64,000 bases of DNA from Mobula hypostoma (Eukaryota): NCBI RefSeq assembly GCF_963921235.1, contig NC_086097.1:156428001-156492000 (forward strand), in the 5' to 3' direction. The notes beneath the pieces were generated by a model, which worked only from the letters and a program-made list of their open reading frames with translations, had not been told where the DNA came from and searched no databases. Of the stretch, positions 7,467 to 54,567 are shown piece by piece (within the stretch, counting starts at the first letter, position 1; each line of letters begins with the position of its first letter). The position numbers and the translations under genes are program-made.

Positions 7467-10400
7467 ATTGGCCCTGGATCTCAAGAGAGAGAATTTGTAG
7501 AATGTCTGCGAGATGGCTTTTTAGAACAGCTTGTTGTTGAGCCCACTAGGGGATCAGCTGTACTGGATTGGGTATTGTGTAATGAACCGGAGGTGATTAG
7601 AGAGATTGAGGTGAAGGAACCCTTAGGAGGCAGTGATCATAACATGATTGAGTTCACTGTGAAATTTGAGAAAGAGAAGCCGAAATATGATGTGTCGGTA
7701 TTTCAGTGGAGTAAAGTTAAATTACAGTGGCATGAGAGAGGAATGGCCAAAGTTGACTGGAAAGGGACACTTGCGGGAAGGACAGCAGAGCGGCAGTGGC
7801 TGGAGTTTATGTGAGAAGTGAGGAAGGTGCAAGACAGATATATTCCAAAAAAGAAGAAATTTTCAAATGGAAAAAGGATGCAACCATGGCTGACAAAAGA
7901 AGTTAAAGCCAAAGTTAAAGCAAAGGAGAGGGCATACAAGGAAGCAAAAATTAGAGGGACGACAGAGGATTGGGAAGTTTTCAAAAGCTTACAGAAGGAA
8001 ACTAAGAAGGTCATTAAGAGGGAAAAGAGGAACTATGAAAGGAAGCTAGCAAATAATATCAAAGAGGATACTAAAAGCTTTTTCAAGTATACAAAGAGTA
8101 AAAGACAGGTGAGAGTAGATATAGGACCGATAGAAAATGATGCTGGAGAAATTGTAATGGGGGAAAAAGAGATGGTGGAGGAACTGAACGAGTATTTTGC
8201 ATCAGTCTTCACTGAGGAAGACATCAGCAGTATACTGGACACTCAAGGGTGTCAGGGAAGAGAAGTGAGTGCAGTCACAATTACGACAGAGAAAGTACTC
8301 AGGAAGCTGAATAGTTTAAGGGTAGATAAATCTCCCAAACCAGATGGAATGCACCCTTGTGTTCTGAAGGAAGTAGCTGTGGAGATTGCAGAGGCATTAG
8401 CAATGATCTTTCAGAAGTCAAGAGATAGATAGATTCTGGCATGGTTCTGGAGGACTGGAAGATTGCAAATGTCACTCCGCTATTTAAGAAGGGGGCAAGG
8501 AAGCAAAAAGGAAATTATAGACCTGTTAGCTTGACATCGGTGGTTGGGAAGTTGTTGGAGTCGATTGTCAAGGATGAGGTTATGGAGTACTTGGAGGCAT
8601 ATAACAAGATAGGCAGAACTCAGCATGGATTCCTTAAAGGAGAATCCTGCCTGAAAAACCTATTGCAATTTATTGAGGAAATTACAAGTAGGCTAGACAA
8701 GGGAGATAGAACATAGAACATAGAAAAATAGGTGCAGGAGTAGGCCATTCGGCCCTTCGAGCCTGCACCGCCATTTAATATGATCATGGCTGATCATCCA
8801 ACTCAGAACCCCGCCCCAGCCTTCCCTCCATACCCCCGATCCCCGTAGCCACAAGGGCCATATCTAACTCCCTCTTAAATATAGCCAATGAACTGGCCTC
8901 AACTGTTTCCTGTGGCAGAGAATTCCAGAGATTCACCACTCTCTGTGTGCAGAGGTTTTTCCTAATCTTGGTCCTAAAAGGCTTCCCCTCTATCCTCAAA
9001 CTGTGACCCCTTGTTCTGGACTTCCCCAACATCTGGAACAATCTTCCTGCATCTAGCCTGTCCAATCCCTTTAGGATTTTATACGTTTCAATCAGATCCC
9101 CCCTCAATCTTCTAAATTCCAACGAGTACAAGCCCAATTCATCCAGTCTTTCTTCATATGAAAGTCCTGCCATCCCAGGAATCAATCTGGTGAACCTTCT
9201 TTGTACTCCCTTTATGGCAAGGATGTCTTTCCTCAGATTAGGGGACCAAAACTGCACACAATACTCCAGGTGTGGTCTCACCAAGGCCTTGTACAACTGC
9301 AGTAGTACCTCCCTGCTCCTGTACTTGAATCCTCTCGCTATAAATGCCAGCATACCATTCGCCTTTTTCACCGCCTGCTGTACCTGCATGCCCACTTTCA
9401 ATGACTGATGTATAATGACACCCAGGTCTCGTTGCACCTCCCCTTTTCCTAATCGGCCACCATTCAGATAATAATCTGTTTTCCTATTTTTGCCACCAAA
9501 GTGGATAACTTCACATTTATCCACATTAAATTGCATCTGCCATGAATTTGCCCACTCACCCAACCTATCCAAGTCACTCTGCATCCTCTTAGCATCCTCC
9601 TCACAGCTAACACTGCCACCCAGCTTTGTGTCATCCGCAAACTTGGAGATGCTGCATTTAATTCCCTCATCCAAGTCATTAATATATATTGTAAACAACT
9701 GGGGTCCCAGCACTGAGCCTTGCGGTACCCCACTAGTCACCGCCTGCCATTCTGAAAAGGTCCCGTTTATTCCCACTCTTTGCTTCCTGTCTGCTAACCA
9801 ATTCTCCATCCACATCAATACCTTACCCCCAATACCGTGTGCTTTAAGTTTGCACACTAATCTCCTGTGTGGGACCTTGTCAAAAGCCTTTTGAAAATCC
9901 AAATATACCACATCCACTGGTTCTCCCCTATCCACTCTACTAGTTACATCCTCAAAAAGTCTATGAGATTCGTCAGACATGATTTTCCTTTCACAAATCC
10001 ATGCTGACTTTGTCCGATGATTTCACTGCTTTCCAAATGTGCTGTTATCACATCTTTGATAACTGACTCCAGCAGTTTCCCCACCACCGACGTTGGGCTA
10101 ACCGGTCTATAATTCCCCGGTTTCTTTCTCCCTCCTTTTTTAAAAAGTGGGGTTACATTAGCCACCCTCCAATCCTCAGGAACTAGTCCAGAATCTAACG
10201 AGTTTTGAAAAATTATCACTAATGCATCCACTATTTCTTGGGCTACTTCCTTAAGCACTCTAGGATGCAGACCATCCGGCCCTGGGGATTTATCTGCCTT
10301 CAATCCCTTCAATTTACCTAACACCACTTCCCTACTAACATGTATTTCGCTCAGTTCTTCCATCTCACTGGACCCTCTGTCCCCTACTATTTCTGGAAGA

Positions 10401-12032
10401 TTATTTATGTCCTCCTTAGTGAAGTCAGACCCAAAGTAATTATTCAATTGGTCTGCCATGTCCTTGCTCCCCATAATCAATTCACCTGTTTCTGTCTGTA
10501 GGGGACCTACATTTGTCTTTACCAGTCTTTTCCTTTTTACATATCTATAAAAGCTTTTACAGTCAGTTTTTATGTTCCCTACCAGTTTTCTCTCATAATC
10601 TTTTTTCCCCATCCTAATTAAGCCCTTTGTCCTCCTCTGCTGAACTCTGAATTCCTCCCAGTCGTCAGGTGAGCCACTTTCTCTGGCTAATTTGTATGCT
10701 ACTTCTTTGGAATTGATACTATCCCTAATTTCTCTTGTCAGCCACGGGTGCACTACCTTCCTTGATTTATTCTTTTGCCAAACTGGGATGAACAATTGTT
10801 GTAGTTCATCCATGCAACCTTTAAATGCAGTGGATGTTGTATATTTGGATTTTCAGAAGGCCTTTGACAAGTTGCCACACATGAGGCTCCTTAACAAGAT
10901 AAGAGCCCATCGAATTACGGGAAAGTTACATTCTTGGATAGAGCGTTGGCTGATTGGCAGGAAACAGAGATGGAATAAAAGGATCCTATTCTGGTTGGCT
11001 GTGGGTTACTTGTGGTGTTCCACAGGGGTCCATGTTGGGGCTGCTTCTTTTTACGTTGTATATCAACAATTTGGATTATGGAATAGATGGCTTTGTGGCT
11101 AAGTTTGCTTATGATAAAAGATAGGTGGACGGGCCGGTAGTGCTGAGGAAGCAGAGAGTCTGCAGAGAGACTTGGATAGTTTGGGAGAATGGGCAAAGAA
11201 GTGGCAAATGAAATACAATGTTGGAAAGTGTATGGGTATGCACTTTGGCAGAAGAAATAAACTGGCAGACTATTATTTAAGTGGGGAGAGAATTCAAAGT
11301 TCTGAGATGCAACGGGACTTGGGAGTCCTCATGAAAGATACCCTTAAGGTTAACCTCCAGGTTGAGCTGGTGGTGAGGAATGTGAATGCAATGTTGGCAT
11401 TCATTTCCAGAGGAATAGAGTGCAGGATCAGGGATGTAATGTTGAGGCTCTATAAGGCGCTGGTGAGACCTCACTTGGAGTACTGTGGGCAGTTTTGGTC
11501 TCCTTATTTAAGAAAGGATGTGCTGACATTGCAGAGGGTACAGAGAAGATTCACTAGAATGATTCTGGGAATGAGAGGGTTAACATATGAGGACCGTTTG
11601 ACCACTCTCGGACTGTACTCCTTGGAGTTTAGAAGAATGAGGGGAGACCTCATAGAAACATTTCGAATGTTGAAAGGCATGGACAGAGTGGATGTGGCAA
11701 AGTTGTTCCCCATGGTGGGGGAGTCTAGTATGAGAGGGCATGACTTAAGGATTGAAGGGCGCCCATTCAGAATAGAGATGTGAAGAAATTTTTTCAGCCA
11801 GAGGGTGGTGAATCTATGGAATTTACGGGCGGCAGTGGAGGCCAAATCATTGGGTGTATTTAAGGCAGAGATTGATAGGTATTTGAGTAGCCAGGGCATC
11901 AAAGGTTATGGTGAGAAGGCGGGGGAGTGGGACTAAATGGGAGAATGGATCAGCTCATGATAAAATGGCGGAGCAGACTCAATGGGCCAAATGGCCGACT
12001 TCTGCTCCTTTGTCTTATGGTCTTATGGTCTA
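7467..12032 (+). mobile_element. CR1 LINE (5'-truncated ORF2), split by an inner CR1
   Basis: EPLGGSDHN, KSPKPDGMHP, NYRPVSLT, QHGF; continues after 10826 with DVVYLDFQKAFDK and LVRPHLEYC. (TCTTATGG)n tail at ~12013-12030. Confidence 0.95.
8708..10826 (-). mobile_element. Young CR1 LINE, 5'-truncated, RT intact except one frameshift
   Basis: ORFs 9944-10813 and 8784-9980 (VPQGSVLGP, FADD, RPHLEYCVQFW); (TTCTATG)n tail at 8708-8725; splits the outer CR1 at gat|gcagtggat. Confidence 0.97.
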
Positions 12033-38942: not shown

Positions 38943-40645
38943 ATAATCTTCCAGAAATAGTACGGGACAGAGGGTCCAGTGAGATGGAGGAACTGAGTGA
39001 AATACATGTTAGTAGGGAAATGGTGTTAGGTAAATTGAAGGGATTGAAGGCAGATAAATCCCCAGGGCCAGATGGTCTGCATCCTAGAGTGCTTAAGGAA
39101 AGTAGCCCAAGAAATAGTGGATGCATTAGTGATAATTTTTCAAAACTCGTTAGATTCTGGACTAGTTCCTGAGGATTGGAGGGTGGCTAATGTAACCCCA
39201 CTTTTTAAAAAAGGAGGGAGAGAGAAACCGGGGAATTATAGACTGGTTAGCCTAATGTCGGTGGTGGGGAAACTGCTGGAGTCAGTTATCAAAGATGTGA
39301 TAACAGCACATTTGGAAAGCGGTGAAATGATCGGACAAAGTCAGCATGGATTTGTGAAAGGAAAATCATGTCTGACGAATCTCATAGAATTTTTTGAGGA
39401 TGTAACTAGCAGAGTGGATAGGGGAGAACCAGTGGATGTGGTATATTTGGATTTTCAAAAGGCTTTTCACAAGGTCCCACACAGGAGATTAGTGTGCAAA
39501 CTTAAAGCACACGGTATTGGGGGTAAGGTATTGATGTGGATGGAGAATTGGTTAGCAGACAGGAAGCAAAGAGTGGGAATAAACGGGACCTTTTCAGAAT
39601 GGCAGGCGGTGACTAGTGGGGTACCGCAAGGCTCAGTGCTGGGACCCCAGTTGTTTACAATATATATTAATGACTTGGATGAGGGAATTAAATGCAGTAT
39701 CTCCAAGTTTGCGGATGACACGAAGCTGGGCGGCAGTGTTGGCAGTGAGGAGGATGCTAAGAGGATGCAGGGTGACTTGGATAGGTTGGGTGAGTGGGCA
39801 AACTCATGGCAGATGCAATTTAATGTGGATAAATGTGAAGTTATCCACTTTGGTGGCAAAAATAGGAAAACAGATTATTATCTGAGTGGTGGCCGATTAG
39901 GAAAAGGGGAGGTGCAACAAGACCTGGGTGTCATTATACACCAGTCATTGAAAGTGGGCATGCAGGTACAGCAGGCGGTGAAAAAGGCGAATGGTATGCT
40001 GGCATTTATAGCGAGAGGATTCAAGTACAGGAGCAGGGAGGTACTACTGCAGTTGTACAAGGCCTTGGTGAGACCACACCTGGAGTATTGTGTGCAGTTT
40101 TGGTCCCCTAATCTGAGGAAAGACATCTTTGCCATAGAGGGAGTACAAAGAAGGTTCACCAGATTGATTCCTGGGATGGCAGGACTTTCATATGAAGAAA
40201 GACTGGATGAACTGGGCTTGTACTCGTTAGAATTTAGAAGATTGAGGGGGGATCTGATTGAAACGTATAAGATCCTAAAGGGATTGGACAGGCTAGATGC
40301 AGGAAGATTGTTCCAGATGTTGGGGAAGTCCAGAACGAGGGGTCACAGTTTGAGGATAGAGGGGAAGCCTTTTAGAACCGAGATTAGGAAAAACTTCTTC
40401 ACACAGAGAGTGGTGAATCTGTGGAATTCTCTGCCACAGGAAACTGTTGAGGCCAGTTCATTGGCTATATTTAAGAGGGAGTTAGATATGGCCCTTGTGG
40501 CTACAGGGGTCAGGGGGTATGGAGGGAAGGCTGCGGCGGGGTTCTGAGTTGGATGATCAGCCATGATCATAATAAATGGCGGTGCAGGCTCGAAGGGCCG
40601 AATGGCCTACTCCTGCACCTATTTTCTATGTTTCTATGTTTCTAT
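38943..40645 (+). mobile_element. Young CR1 LINE, 5'-truncated, with a 491-aa open RT region; same subfamily as 8708-10826
   Basis: ORF 39072-40547 with complete RT motifs; (TTTCTATG)n tail; near-identical to the reverse complement of ~8720-10400. Confidence 0.97.
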
Positions 40646-48449: not shown

Positions 48450-48550
48450 TAATATGCTCTTTAATGAAATGTATCTCATGCAGCACTTTTACAGAAAAAT
48501 ACTCATAATGTGACGCAACTTTGGTTATGTAAGAAGTATCCTGTCACTTA

Positions 48551-49414
48551 TGTTATGTACCCCGTAACTGGGTTGCCAAACCAGCAGAAATGGATCACTC
48601 AGTTGGAGTCTGGAGTACTAGAACTAAGAAAGTTTTATTAAAGAAACAAGCAACACAGTAATCGAAAGGATAATAAATGCAACAGTTCAGCAATGATAAA
48701 CACACATGTGCACAGAATTAAGATAACAGCATCAATCAAGCTCTATCGTTGTCTAGGGGTAAATGACCAATTTCAAAGTGACACAAAAGTCCAGTTCAGT
48801 TTAGTTCAGTTCTCAGCAATCGTTGCCATGGCGATGGACAACGTGGGGGGAGAGAGAGAGAGAGAACGAGAATGACTGATCATTCAGAAACGGCTTCCAC
48901 TCACAGACTGGCGATATTGCTCACAAGCAGCTTTCGGGCGGGTCCTTTGTGATGTCACCTGAGGTCACCGACTGTGACCCCTCCTCCAGATGCGGTCGAT
49001 CCTCTGCAGTGAACCCGGCACCCAAGCGAGGGTGGACACACACCGGGTTCCCGCTGATTGTACCTTTCTACCCTGTGCGTTTAAGGTCCGATACTTCCCA
49101 CCAACTCGTGAGAGGTGCACCGCTTCCAGGGTCTCGTTACCTCGGGTGTCGTGTGTGTGTCCTGCCTTAGCGAACCTGTCCCTTTTTATCCCCCTGCTGG
49201 GGTATCGCCTGTCCATCACTTCAAACAGTTCAGGGTTCAAAGGGGGAGCCGCTCCAGACAGCTCTCTGTCCCGTCCCTTCATTACACATCTCCAGATGCT
49301 GCTTCATTGTTCCTTATCTCTCCTTCCCCTGAGGACAGGTGGCAGACCACTGCTGATGCCACTGATGCTAGCCCAGGCCAGCAAACATCTTAATTTATGT
49401 GTATTCTCGTCACA
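48551..49414 (-). repeat. 3' LTR (864 bp)
   Basis: Direct repeat of 52504-53370; minus-strand GATAAAAA at ~49185-49192 and AATAAA at ~48634-48639. Confidence 0.97.
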
Positions 49415-49426
49415 CTTCCCCCCTTT
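49415..49426 (-). promoter_or_regulatory. Polypurine tract
   Basis: AAAGGGGGGAAG immediately before the TGTG start of the 3' LTR. Confidence 0.9.
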
Positions 49427-49539
49427 AAGGATTTTTACCGGGAGGTAAAAATTACAAACATGAATACATTATTTGATACACACACAAATATACATCTTTA
49501 TCAGCTATTTGGCTAACACAGCGAGTTTGAAGTTGTCAA

Positions 49540-50535
49540 CACCTTGACAGACAGTCATCACATTTTCTGTTCCTTTTATATGTGTTATTAATAATCCCTT
49601 AGACCAGGCTCCAACTCAGCAAACTTCATAGTGGCTAAAAACACTGATGAATTGCAATCAATGTAACCTCTCATTTGGTTTCGTCCCGGACCACAATAAC
49701 AAGGGTCGTCCCATTCCGACTCAGTTTTCTCTCACAAGGGCTTAGTAGGAGGGGGAGGGGTAGTGACCGCAGAGTTATTGCAAAACTTCCTACAGTACCC
49801 CACCATCTCCAAGAGCCTTCTGAGGGCCCTCTTGTCTGTCGGGGTTGGGAGGTCAGCGATAGCCTGCACTGTAGCTTGCATCGCTGCCAGCTGCCCCTGT
49901 GTCACCACAATTCCCAGGTAAGTGACCCTCGCGTGGCCGAATTCATTTTTTTCAAGGTTCACTATCAAGCTGGCTTCAGACAGCCGTATTAAATTGCCAA
50001 TACACACCTCTGTGTTCGTCAGCCCTTTAGTCACTGAATTACTCATTATATATGGATGTTGTTTACTAGGCTCCCCTATTGTAACAGACATCACCCAACG
50101 TCCCAGTTCTTTACATTGCCTCGGGACAATCAAACACACGGGTGCGAGTCGTTTAATTACTTTTTCTAAAGAGCCGCTTTGTTCGGGGATTAAAGGAGAG
50201 ACCTTATCAGTAGACCTGGCCAAAACAATAGCCTTCTCCCATCTGATCGATCCCATACTAATCTTTTCAAAATGTTTTTTTTCTCTTATCAGGGGGCCCC
50301 TAGCTTCATTGATTTCCATGCTAACACCGACTAGGTTTGTTAGCTTATCAAAAGCCTGTGATCGTCTCAGTTCGCGTCGGTCATGATCAATAACATCCTT
50401 CCCCCTGGGCAGCCGGTAAACCTCTTTCATGATTCCACCAACTGTTTCCTCCAGCACCGCAAAATGTCCACCGGGGGGTACCTCATGGGCCATGTTAAAA
50501 ACCTCATCCCCATAACTCTTTTGCACCACCCCCAC
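49540..50535 (-). pseudogene. Deleted pol: integrase N-terminal piece, RT scraps, RT thumb, RNaseH C-terminus
   Basis: AHEVPPGGHF (IN zinc-binding His pair); QHPY; GLTNTEVCIGNL at the YxDD position; LIVNLEKNEFGHARVTYLG..ALRRLLEMVGYCRKF; LLSWSLV..HIKGTENV..DCLSRC. Confidence 0.8.
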
Positions 50536-52405
50536 TCCTCATCTGCGGGTACTGAACTTGATTTCCCTTTTTTCCTTAGCACTTCCTCCTCCGCACAATA
50601 GCTTGTCAAGGCTGTGTCAGAGAGAGCGGTCTCGGCAAAAACCATCAGCCCCTCGTCTCGCTCCTGCGTCTGCACAAATTCTTTCCTGGCTACTGCTACG
50701 TCCGTCCCAGCTCCCTCACTACCTCTTATCTCACTACACCCTGTCTCATACAAGGTTGGCAGAAATGTTTCAGCCAAATTCACCATCGCGGGCGGGGCCT
50801 CCATGCTGGCAGGCTGACCCGTCAATCTCACGACTGGGAACACGATTCCTCCGGCGATGTCATTACCGAGCAAGACTTCCACGTCTTTCATCGGTAATTC
50901 GGACCTCACCCCGATCGTGACTAGTCCAGAGACCAGGTTGCTCTGTAAGTGTATCTGGTGCAAAGGGACTGACTCTGTCCCTTCCCCAACACCTTTGACC
51001 TCTACCTCCCCAGTCTGGGTCTCTGAGCTAAACTGTAATACACTCTTCAGTATTAGTGACTGACACGCTCCCATGTCTCTCCAGATCCGCACTGGAACTG
51101 GTTTTAACCCCTCCTTCACTGACACCAATCCGGCCGAGATAAACCTCTTGCGCCCTTCCTGAACTTTGGCAGACCTGTCCTTCCCTAGCGGTTCGCTTAA
51201 CAGCTCGATACAGCCATTCAGAACCCCCATTTTTCCTTTCTCCGTCTCCTTCCTTGGGGCAAAGCACCTGGACGCAAAGTGTCCGACTTTCCCGCAATTA
51301 TAACAGACGACCCCAGGAGACTTCCTGCCAGACTGCTCCCGGTCTACCTTATCCTTCTCACTAGACCCCGGCTTACTTTCTGACTTTTCCGGCGGACTCT
51401 CTCCACCATCCTGACTACCCTTCTAGTATCCTTTACTCGGGGCAAACTTCATTTTATGCGTCAACGCATACTCATCTGCTAACTTAGCAGTTTTGGCTAA
51501 CGTGGCTGCCTCTTTCTCATCGAGGTAGGGTCTCATGCCCTCAGGGACACAACCTTTAAACTGCTCAATCAGGATGAGCTGCAGCAGTTTGTCATAATCC
51601 CCCTCTACCCCCTTCGAGGTGGACCAACGCTCACAATATGTCTGCATCTCACAGGCAAACTCCAAATACGTGCGATCCCACTGCTTCCTCGCATTCCGGA
51701 ACCTCTGCCGGTATGCCTCCGGGACCAACTCATAAATCCTGAGGATGGCCTCTTTCACCACCTCATACCTCTGGGCATCTTCCGCGGACAAAGCAGAGTA
51801 CGCTTCTTGGGCTTTCCCTTTCAGTACACTCTGAAGTAAAACAACTCACTTATCCCTCGGCCAGTCCTGACTTATAGCCACTTTTTCGAAATGGAGGAAG
51901 TACCGATCCACGTCGGTATCGTCAAATGGGGGAACCAGCCTAACCTCCTGGGTCGCCCGGCACCCTCCACCTTGGTTCGGCACGAGCCCCTGCTCTGCCC
52001 TTAACCTTAACTTCTCCAGCTCGAATTCCCTTTCCCTCTGTTTCTCCAACTGCTGCAACTGTCTCTCTCTCTCTTTCTCTTCTCTCTCCAACTGTCTCTC
52101 TCTCTCTTTCTCTTCTCTCTCCAACTGTCATACCCGGGGAACTCATACTCGAGTCTCAGTTTTTCAAGCTGCACCTGTACCGCGTCTCCAGCAGGTTTTT
52201 CAATAGACACCACCCCCAGCTCGCCTTGGGGAAACACACCCTTAGATACATAGTGCTCTACGATAGCTCTGTGTATCTCCTCTCTCCTCATTGTCGTCTT
52301 CCCCTTAGCAAGATTCAACCTTTTGGCCACAGCTACCAATTCAGATTTCCTGGCATCCTCTAATGCCTCCAAGCTTGGCGCCTTTATAAATTCCTCAGCC
52401 TCCAT
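50427..52405 (-). pseudogene. gag-protease (one frameshift at ~52135; stops at 51846 and 51423)
   Basis: ATG at 52405; coiled-coil repeats; LVPPF..FEKVA..WP; YELVPEAYRQRFR..LILIEQF..AKLADEY (SCAN-like capsid); CYNCGKVGHFASRC; protease RDMGACQSLI..LLGNDIAG. Confidence 0.9.
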
Positions 52406-52481
52406 TTCTGCTGTTTGTCTTTTCTTTTTTTCGGGAATTTTAACCCAATCAATTTACTCCATCCCAAATTTAGCATTCAAA

Positions 52482-52499
52482 ATCCCGGACGAGCCCCCA
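52482..52499 (-). promoter_or_regulatory. Primer binding site, tRNA-Pro
   Basis: TGGGGGCTCGTCCGGGAT, the canonical 18-nt tRNA-Pro PBS, 4 nt (TAAG) after the 5' LTR. Confidence 0.95.
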
Positions 52500-52503
52500 C
52501 TTA

Positions 52504-53370
52504 TGTTATGTACACCATAACTGGGTTGCCAAGCCAGCAGAAATGGATCACTCAGTTGGAGTCTGGATTACTAGAACTAAGAAAGTTTTATTAAAGAAAC
52601 AAGCAACACAGTAATCAAAAGGATAATAAATGCAACAGTTCAGCAATGATAAACACACATGTGCACAGAATTAAGATAACAGCATCAATCAAGCTCTATC
52701 GTTGTCTAGGGGTAAATGACTAATTTCAAAGTGACACAAAAGTCCAGTTCGGTTTAGTTCAGTTCGCAGTAATCGTTGCCATGGTGATGGACAATGTGGG
52801 GGGGGGGGAGGGAGAGAGAGAACGGGAATGACTGATCATTCAGAAACGGCTTCCACTCACAGACTGGCGATATTGCTCACAAGCAGCTTTCGGGCAGGTC
52901 CTTTGTGATGTCACCTGAGGTCACCGACTGTGACCCCTCCTCCAGATGCGGTCGATCCTCTGCAGTGAACCCGGCACCCAAGCGAGGGTGGACACACACC
53001 GGGTTTCCGCTGATCGTACCTTTCTACCCTGTGCATTTAAGGTCCGATACTTCCCACCGACTCGTGAGAGGCGCACCGCTTCCAAGGTCTCGTTACCTCG
53101 GGTGTCGTGTGCGTGCCCTGTCTTAGCGAACCTGTCCCTTTTTATCCCCCTGCTGGGGTATCGCCTGTCCATCACTTCAAACAGTTCAGGGTTCAAAGGG
53201 GTAGCCGCTCCAGACAGCTCTCTCTCCCGTCCCTTCATTACACATCTCCAGATGCTGCTTCATTGTTCCTTATCTCTCTTTCCCCTGAAGACAGGTGGCA
53301 GACCACTGCTAATGCCACTGATGCTAGCCCAGGCCAGCAAACATCTTAATTTATGTGTATTCTCGTCACA
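52504..53370 (-). repeat. 5' LTR (867 bp)
   Basis: About 27 substitutions plus a G/GA tract length change versus 48551-49414 (manual count). Confidence 0.97.
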
Positions 53371-54016
53371 CTATGGCTACCAACATTGTAAATTCACTTG
53401 TGCAAGTGTCATCTTCTGAGTATTTGATATCTATTGTTCAATGAATCCTAAAGCTGTAGCTGATATTCCAATAGTTGAAGACCATTGTCAGAGATTCTTA
53501 TCTGTCTGTGGTGCTTTTAAAATAATAAATTGTGCCTGCTTGTACCTAAAATGTCAGTATGAGCTCTTTCAACAAATTGTGGAAACTGTTTTTATAAAAC
53601 TCCAAGTCCACAGGAAGAAGATTTTGCCTCAGGATGTCTGTATCAAGTGAATACTAATAGGGCATTGTTCACCAAATGCAAGTTTATGCAATATTCTTTC
53701 CATATTAATGATTCACGGCATAGTAGATGGGTTTCACAGTTTTAACCATATATATTATGTGTAACTGTGTAGCTTGCTCTCTGACTGTGGTACTTTATCC
53801 CACCCTGTCCTTCAATACAGACTATTCCACAGTTCAGATGCAATGTTCCAACTTTATTGTCAGTTACATGAGAAAGAGGGAGGCAGAAGATGACTCACGG
53901 AGGATCCCAAGGGTTAGGTTGTGGAAGAAGACAGGCGATGAGGAGAAGTGGAAGAGAATAAAAATAGGAGCTGGAGAACGCTGTATGGCTGCAGCAGATC
54001 CTGTGCCTATTTTAAA

Positions 54017-54220
54017 CACAAGAGATTCTGCAGGTGCCTGAAATCCAGAGTAACACTTACAAAATGCTAGTGGAATTCACCACTTCAGGTAGCATTTATG
54101 GAAATGAATAAACAGTTGTTATTTTGGGTTGAGACCCTTCATCAGAACTGAGGTGCTGACTGTTTATTCACATCCACAGACGTTGCTGACCTGGTAAGTT
54201 CCTCCAGTATTTTGTATGCA
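54017..54220. mobile_element. Penelope-like terminal inverted repeat
   Basis: acaaaatgctagtggaattcacc..aataaacagt is inverted with actgtttattc..gttcctccagtattttgt; minus strand agttCTGATGAagggtctcaacccaaaa. Confidence 0.7.
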
Positions 54221-54567
54221 TAACCCCATGCCCACATTGTTGTTTAGTTCCCTCATCCTCCAAATAATGAAAATCAAATCAACAAAAGATTCAAGATCAA
54301 GTTCGACATCAAGTTCTCCATCTTTAGGTTAATTGCCTTCTTCATCAGTAGAACAGTTAGTTCATCAACCATTTTTGCTCAGTTTTCCTCCCTCTATTAG
54401 TGGATCTTGACAACTTGCACACCTCCGACAGCCTTGCCATTAACAGCACATGCATGAATAAAAAAACGTGTCACCATCTAGCAGACCCCAACCCACTCTT
54501 CTAACATCTTCCTTTGTCCCATCCATCCAGCCATTTTCTTGGCAAAAAAATGGTGTACTTTTCTTTA

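Follow-up and report, generated by a model that had tools for sequence, protein, structure and literature searches.

A dead retrotransposon copy in Mobula hypostoma and the probable non-autonomous Gmr1-like Gypsy family to which it belongs

A 64,000-nucleotide stretch of the Mobula hypostoma genome (contig NC_086097.1, positions 156,428,001 to 156,492,000; called the window here, and its coordinates are used throughout) contains a long terminal repeat (LTR) retrotransposon on the minus strand at 48551-53370, surrounded by DNA rich in long interspersed nuclear elements (LINEs). This copy is dead and is broken in six places. It very probably belongs to a Gmr1-like Gypsy family in mobulid rays that is old, non-autonomous, and high in copy number, and that arose from an autonomous Mobula lineage by three large in-frame deletions, was then eroded step by step, and multiplied in this reduced state. 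The architecture described for Gmr1-like Ty3/Gypsy elements is SCAN, protease (PR), integrase (IN), reverse transcriptase (RT), and RNase H (RH), in this order (bioRxiv 10.1101/2025.03.03.638093). Judged by sequence, the element is a derivative of this clade that is not itself autonomous.

The family is recognized by deletion junctions that are shared among loci. The 268-aa open reading frame (ORF) of the pol remnant was searched against 2841 candidate proteins and matched six, all from M. hypostoma, with 86-95% identity. After cluster look-ups and two further searches, the set of Mobula-named proteins grew to 27, and 246 proteins were fetched overall. Among these 246, the IN junction is found in 17, the RT junction in 14, and the RNase H junction in 10, all of them Mobula-named; the remaining family proteins without the later junctions terminate earlier. 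The 17 carriers represent 15 loci of M. hypostoma, spread over 12 contigs, and two loci of the RefSeq 'M. birostris' assembly, which is named M. yarae in 10.64898/2026.10.27.761883. At six loci a single ORF, 939-1004 aa long, spans gag, protease, and the remnant, and five of these share the same end. An earlier note on this stretch had proposed that the element probably transposed in its deleted form. The contrary outcome, junctions private to this locus and other copies with full pol at about 97% identity, was not observed: three protein searches and the representative search returned no full-pol copy of 97% identity, and the proposal stands. For the same reason hardly any credence is left for a single decayed autonomous copy with private deletions; the six breaks in the window copy fit such a history, but the same junctions at 17 other loci in two species refute it.

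Contigs from four coded runs, representing organisms A, B, and C, were also aligned to 49415-54400. Note that run X1 is identical to the flank and may be the source of the window, and is therefore not independent evidence. The remnant is covered by contigs of all three organisms, and organism-B contigs (records 17-19) span the junctions near 50374, 50047, and 49987. Summed contig depth over the remnant is 0.79 (organism A) and 0.82 (organism B) of that over gag-protease. Relative to the unique flank it is about 17,000x in organism A and 3,800x in organism B, values that are not copy numbers but would imply hundreds of copies even with 31-fold counting per place. At a loose contig end behind 53372 in run X16 (organism C), an LTR is joined to a variant polypurine tract (PPT) and 3' sequence, which could belong to a diverged subfamily or to the autonomous partner. 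RefSeq lists five of the retrotransposon ORFs collected here (P0002, P0013, P0187, P0188, and P0245; proteins are given by such handles) as isoforms of host genes, namely MACC1, UBE2G2, HSPB1-associated protein 1, TRIC-A, and PPM1L.

The earlier note had described pol as a mosaic without YxDD or DDE core. The absence of the cores is borne out, as they are deleted or degenerate, and the word mosaic has to be given up. The window remnant is a single open frame (49735-50538, 268 aa) in which pieces of IN, the linker, RT, and RNase H follow one another unshuffled, forming a colinear series of deletions (Table 1). The pieces are colinear with P0027, P0040, and P0188, in agreement with the PR-IN-RT-RH order that the note had assumed. 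An autonomous element has an intact IN DDE core, RT YxDD, and RNase H; in the window element the DDE core is gone, as are most of RT and RNase H, and the YxDD position lacks the aspartate pair. Measured against full-length or autonomous-type relatives, the family has lost about 290 aa in IN, namely the CxxC, the DDE core, and the greater part of the C-terminal domain; RT is shorter by about 120-127 aa and RNase H by about 86 aa. The RNase H scraps are matched in frames -1, -2, and -3 by tblastn with P0187 and P0188. The thumb of the remnant is 50-57% identical to that of autonomous RT. A fold model of the remnant was uninformative (predicted local distance difference test score, pLDDT, 34; built from 14 close sequences). 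In an early alignment some residues of the remnant were assigned to the start of the IN core; this assignment was dropped, as P0041 and P0188 map them to the C-terminal end of IN and the linker.

In the gag region, Pfam domains are found for SCAN (PF02023, E 7.6e-14), as the SCAN-like gag of the note would have it, and for the zinc knuckle (E 2.1e-6). No protease domain was found by Pfam among the window ORFs. The fold model of the protease has a pLDDT of about 90 across residues 1-90, and a fold search with this model gave only retroviral proteases among the 49 matches listed (E 0.003-0.009), with nothing at E 0.001 or better. These matches are weak but consistent, and the domain is predicted to have a retropepsin fold. 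Only three lesions had been counted in gag-pro. The three that break the gag frame of the window copy are there (a frameshift near 52135 and stops at 51846-48 and 51423-25), but the altered protease triad was left out of that count, which did not include the stop at 49732-34 or the frameshift near 50530 either. The Glu/Arg-rich coiled coil of gag also contains a 33-bp coding repeat (52050-52127). The length of this repeat differs widely among family proteins and explains most of the variation in ORF length given above.

Rates of change differ between the two halves of the family ORF. In a relative-rate comparison of P0002 with an autonomous-type sibling, with stingray proteins as outgroups, the IN remnant has 39 changes in P0002 and 4 in the sibling (p 3e-8) and the RT remnant 28 and 5 (p 7e-5). 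The numbers for the capsid C-terminus (2 vs 4) and the protease (16 vs 10) are not significantly different. The remnant thus evolves 5-10 times as fast as in autonomous-type Mobula relatives, whereas capsid and protease are not accelerated. When sites are pooled, the remnant has changed at 67 of 222 and capsid plus protease at 18 of 178 (p 7e-7). Of the columns that 20 full-length elements conserve, 19 of 55 are altered in the remnant and 2 of 52 in gag/protease (p 5e-5); single-segment tests on conserved columns were mostly not significant, and significance is reached only in pooled tests. The protease triad is canonical in 11 of the 12 family proteins extending that far. The normal rate of capsid and protease together with the release of the remnant indicates, as far as sequence comparison can tell, that Gag and protease are in use and that the residues of the remnant are largely free. 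The reading frame of the remnant behaves differently from its residues. At least 10 in-frame length changes were counted by eye in alignments between protease and RNase H, and two length changes at or after the end of the ORF are not in frame. From 67-90 residue changes, 2.6-4.9 stop codons are expected; none has been fixed (P of none 0.008-0.075).

The order of erosion can be read from relatives. P0027 and P0040 are full-length SCAN-PR-IN-RT-RH elements, the former with a single ORF, and broken autonomous-type fragments are found in Mobula (P0029, P0031, and P0187) and Hypanus (P0019 and P0188). P0187 has YxDD and RNase H and appears broken elsewhere. P0041 has all three deletions, yet it retains residues that later family members do not have, 18 of them following the YxDD position and 7 in the linker. 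In a midpoint-rooted tree of the remnant, the family forms a ladder of P0041, P0193, P0238, the window copy with P0003/P0004, and a tight clade around P0002. In the tree of nucleocapsid (NC) and protease, for which full-length relatives served as outgroup, autonomous-type P0031 is the sister of the family (97/98), and P0029 comes next (83/89). It is reported that the two sequenced mobulids split about 20 million years ago (10.64898/2026.10.27.761883). Because the junctions are common to both species, the comparison suggests that the deleted form is older than this split, barring interspecies transfer.

A similar arrangement is found in stingrays. In RefSeq proteins P0020-P0025 of Hypanus sabinus and Hemitrygon akajei, gag-protease is followed by an in-frame tail, which is about 340 aa in P0020 and P0023. 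Tested in three of the six, with E values from 1e-6 to 1e-16, the tail resembles a degenerate second copy of the capsid C-terminus, NC, and protease, and it has no match to the IN-RT-RH of P0188. Five of these proteins form a separate clade (100/98). P0025 was left out of the tree; in it the same tail is joined to gag of another type and to a short piece from the N-terminus of IN. By their sequences, P0020-P0025 are probably a second, independent non-autonomous family.

How could the mobulid family spread without pol cores? Its RNA would be translated as one Gag-protease-tail polyprotein, particles would be assembled around this RNA, and the RT/RNase H and IN of a related autonomous element would carry out copying and insertion. 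The earlier note had likewise pictured a parasitic family with its own capsid and borrowed RT and IN. The constrained capsid and protease and the loss of the cores throughout the family agree with this picture, whereas an active helper and pure parasitism are what we infer beyond them. The family could also be a Gag/protease donor that aids its helper, since a complete Gmr1-type element has a single ORF (P0027) and could profit from extra Gag and protease; donation of this kind is proposed for Fatima subfamilies of wheat (PMC6097303). As for the tail, the chances seem evenly balanced that it was kept in frame because being translated almost as far as the PPT is a benefit in cis, its residues being unimportant. 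The benefit may be co-translational packaging or, as we suggest, stability of the RNA against nonsense-mediated decay. The gag-pol fusion of IΔ1, a mouse intracisternal A particle (IAP) family, is reported to act in cis (PMC6466679, PMC7411935).

Several observations weigh against this account of a helper-dependent family with a selected frame. No intact helper was found in the protein searches, which returned only the broken P0029, P0031, and P0187 and in which LTRs were not compared; this is a weak negative because the annotation is repeat-masked. Run X9, which could bear on transcription but is RNA only by guess, has coverage on the element and none on the unique flank. RefSeq models are selected for open frames, so the in-frame count is inflated. 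The sister proteins P0003 and P0004 share a frameshift in the thumb, so that the last ~95 residues are not always retained, and P0001, P0005, and P0245 leave the frame too. The ratio of shared to private changes is alike in gag/protease (9:28) and the remnant (16:33; p 0.48, 7 copies).

It is somewhat unlikely, though the strongest of the competing explanations, that the open tail of a non-autonomous family is a by-product of in-frame microhomology deletions and of an annotation that shows only open copies. Junctions 1-3 lie at repeated residues, where microhomology may favor in-frame deletion without selection; the stop-codon test is weak alone at the upper end of its range, and the thumb frameshift of P0003/P0004 fits as well. 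Yet the in-frame changes, small ones included, also occur in the window DNA, which was not picked for its ORF. Of the 12 best-supported contig indels shown (of 21), one falls in the coding span, and it marks the window copy's own break. In addition, the stingray proteins bear an unrelated junk tail that is likewise in frame. This last fact also makes it improbable that the tail is a working part of the protein, for example one that activates the protease or that uses the retained RT thumb or IN-RT linker to dock onto helper Pol. Although the thumb keeps its similarity to autonomous RT and persists in two species, conserved columns of the remnant are not significantly spared (19/55 vs 42/89, p 0.17). 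Host co-option of the Gag-protease ORF, as argued for the Gag of zebrafish Bhikhari (PMC12067270), is very unlikely. The annotation of several copies as host-gene isoforms would be in its favor, but many dispersed young copies, a dead window copy, and a seemingly empty site in a relative fit selfish spread. If selection on the frame is the right reading, a lineage without RT and IN would have lasted at least 20 million years as a donor of Gag and protease, with the frame of a dead pol, and not its residues, being selected as a translated spacer, and stingrays would have reached the same solution separately. Among LTR parasites with a single ORF, selection on the frame alone would in that case be a recurrent rule, and helper and donor may share labor as a pair. 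We put this wider interpretation forward tentatively, as somewhat less probable than its opposite.

Table 1. Coordinates of the element's features in the window
Feature	Position	Strand	Remarks
Left 4-bp duplication, CACT	48545..48548	.	same as 4 bases inside the element beside both LTRs
3' LTR	48551..49414	-	TG...CA reading; TG...TA alternative is 48549-49412
Polypurine tract	49415..49426	-	precedes 3' LTR
RNase H C-terminal scraps after deletion 3	49540..49731	-	two frame shifts; family ORF ends near 49650
RT remnant	49735..50046	-	degenerate YxDD position, then 18-aa loss, palm end, thumb; stop 49732-34
Deletion 2	near 50047	-	about 120-127 aa of RT
Last motif of IN C-terminal domain, IN-RT linker, RT start	50047..50373	-	
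Deletion 1	50373/50374	-	about 290 aa including DDE core
IN N-terminal remnant	50374..50702	-	eroded zinc-binding segment, CxxC lost; frameshift near 50530 in window copy
Aspartic protease, predicted retropepsin fold	50826..51143	-	active-site triad altered in window copy
CCHC zinc knuckle (NC)	51264..51305	-	
gag	51423..52405	-	ATG 52405; encodes N-terminal domain, coiled coil rich in Glu/Arg, capsid whose C-terminal domain is SCAN-like
Primer binding site for tRNA-Pro, 18 nt	52482..52499	-	just after 5' LTR
5' LTR	52504..53370	-	AATAAA at 52592 (minus strand)
Right 4-bp duplication	53369..53372	.	

The cis signals of the element are intact, as had been noted, and in this it is like other members of non-autonomous LTR families: LTRs, primer binding site (PBS), and PPT are all located, and they enclose an internal region of 3.1 kb. 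The PBS is identical over its 18 nt to the PBS-Pro probe of murine leukemia virus given in PMC4587795. Neither a second copy nor a solo LTR of the element was found within the 64-kb window. The LTR pair differs at 29 of 864 aligned sites (3.4%; 24 transitions, 11 of them at CpG, and 5 transversions), close to the 3% of the earlier manual count. This exceeds the divergence between organisms A and B in the flank (15/1015, p 0.009); with CpG changes removed the difference is not significant (p 0.38). The LTR clock probably overstates the age of the window copy. A single-copy flank contig of organism B (run X5, record 23) matches 53369-54071 with 10 of 703 bases different; the match ends at 53369 and the contig continues for 718 nt in non-LTR sequence, which suggests that organism B carries the empty site without the insertion. 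The 718 bases beyond the match would extend to 47827, the edge of the neighboring LINE.

With ends at 48549 and 53368 (TG...TA) the insertion has a perfect 4-bp duplication, whereas TG...CA ends give a mismatch. The same 4-mer flanks both LTRs inside and outside (48545-48548, 49413-49416, 52498-52501, and 53369-53372). Target preference, gene conversion, and IN-free joining as in Tf1 are possible reasons for this identity. It is doubtful that the family or the window copy inserts without integrase, through short homology of unprocessed complementary DNA (cDNA) ends to the target. In IN-less Tf1, flanks matching the PBS and PPT are reported (PMC11042837), and here the outer 4-mer equals the inner 4-mer on both the PBS side and the PPT side, a coincidence of about 1 in 256 that was noticed post hoc. 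However, this is a single locus, and neither LTR is shortened, whereas most of the Tf1 events are tandem or truncated. The same letters would result from gene conversion, from a preferred target, or from a true target site duplication at an element ending in TG...TA.

Other repeats lie in the same window. Two LINE copies in opposite orientation (8706-10404 and 38943-40645), which we take to be CR1-type, are 97% identical and have RT ORFs of 412 and 499 aa. Hundreds of loose contig ends fall in the flank at 54013-54145, a short repeat of very high copy number that is probably a SINE (short interspersed nuclear element) or a LINE tail.

Searches of titles and abstract openings in the literature gave nothing about this family, nor about Gmr1 elements of cartilaginous fish that are non-autonomous; Repbase and Dfam were outside this search, and the family may exist as an uncurated entry of a repeat library. 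The class of element is already known from TR-GAG, IΔ1, Bhikhari, and sugar beet precedents. The novelty lies in the lineage, in the staged series of erosion, and in the sign, perhaps seen twice, that selection acts on the frame only. The family offers a staged natural series from autonomous to helper-dependent in a vertebrate Gypsy lineage, with the intermediates still present in genomes that evolve slowly. The claim of translation in cis, which comes from a single mouse family, becomes testable by counts of in-frame and out-of-frame changes over many copies in two independent lineages. Such ORFs stand in RefSeq as uncharacterized ray genes or host isoforms (e.g., MACC1, PPM1L, and UBE2G2) and can mislead gene-family studies.

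With Gmr1-like elements such as P0027, the ray family shares a SCAN capsid, a zinc knuckle, a protease, IN ahead of RT-RH, and a single ORF. It differs in having no IN, RT, or RNase H cores, in its internal region of 3.1 kb, and in being immobile alone. A mechanistic parallel is offered by mouse IAP IΔ1, which is described as non-autonomous, with an in-frame deletion that leads to a gag-pol fusion and with helper-driven spread (PMC6466679, PMC7411935); the ray ORF is likewise an in-frame gag-pol deletion fusion. IΔ1 is described as betaretrovirus-like and young, with one 1.9-kb deletion of part of gag and pol, whereas the ray family has a complete gag and protease, three large deletions along with many small ones, and a tail from which ~30% of the residues are gone. 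The earlier note had compared the element with gag-only TR-GAG elements of plants. These are defined in PMC4350172 without protease similarity, and TR-GAG is the wrong analogue because the ray family retains a protease, as its predicted fold indicates, and an in-frame pol tail. In a broader sense plant TR-GAG (PMC4350172), wheat Fatima (PMC6097303), and sugar beet families (PMC13570524) are described as having intact LTRs, PBS, and PPT, as keeping Gag with or without protease, and as borrowing RT and IN, as in rays. Of 115 non-autonomous families in sugar beet, 8 are reported to retain GAG/PROT and a decayed POL domain (PMC13570524). The plant families belong to plant lineages, however, and their remnants, as described there, are patchy and not one conserved in-frame tail. 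Zebrafish BHIKHARI is, like the ray family, a non-autonomous LTR family of a vertebrate that has a Gag of its own; it differs in being related to Lokiretroviruses and is described as gag only, with no protease or pol remnant (PMC12067270).

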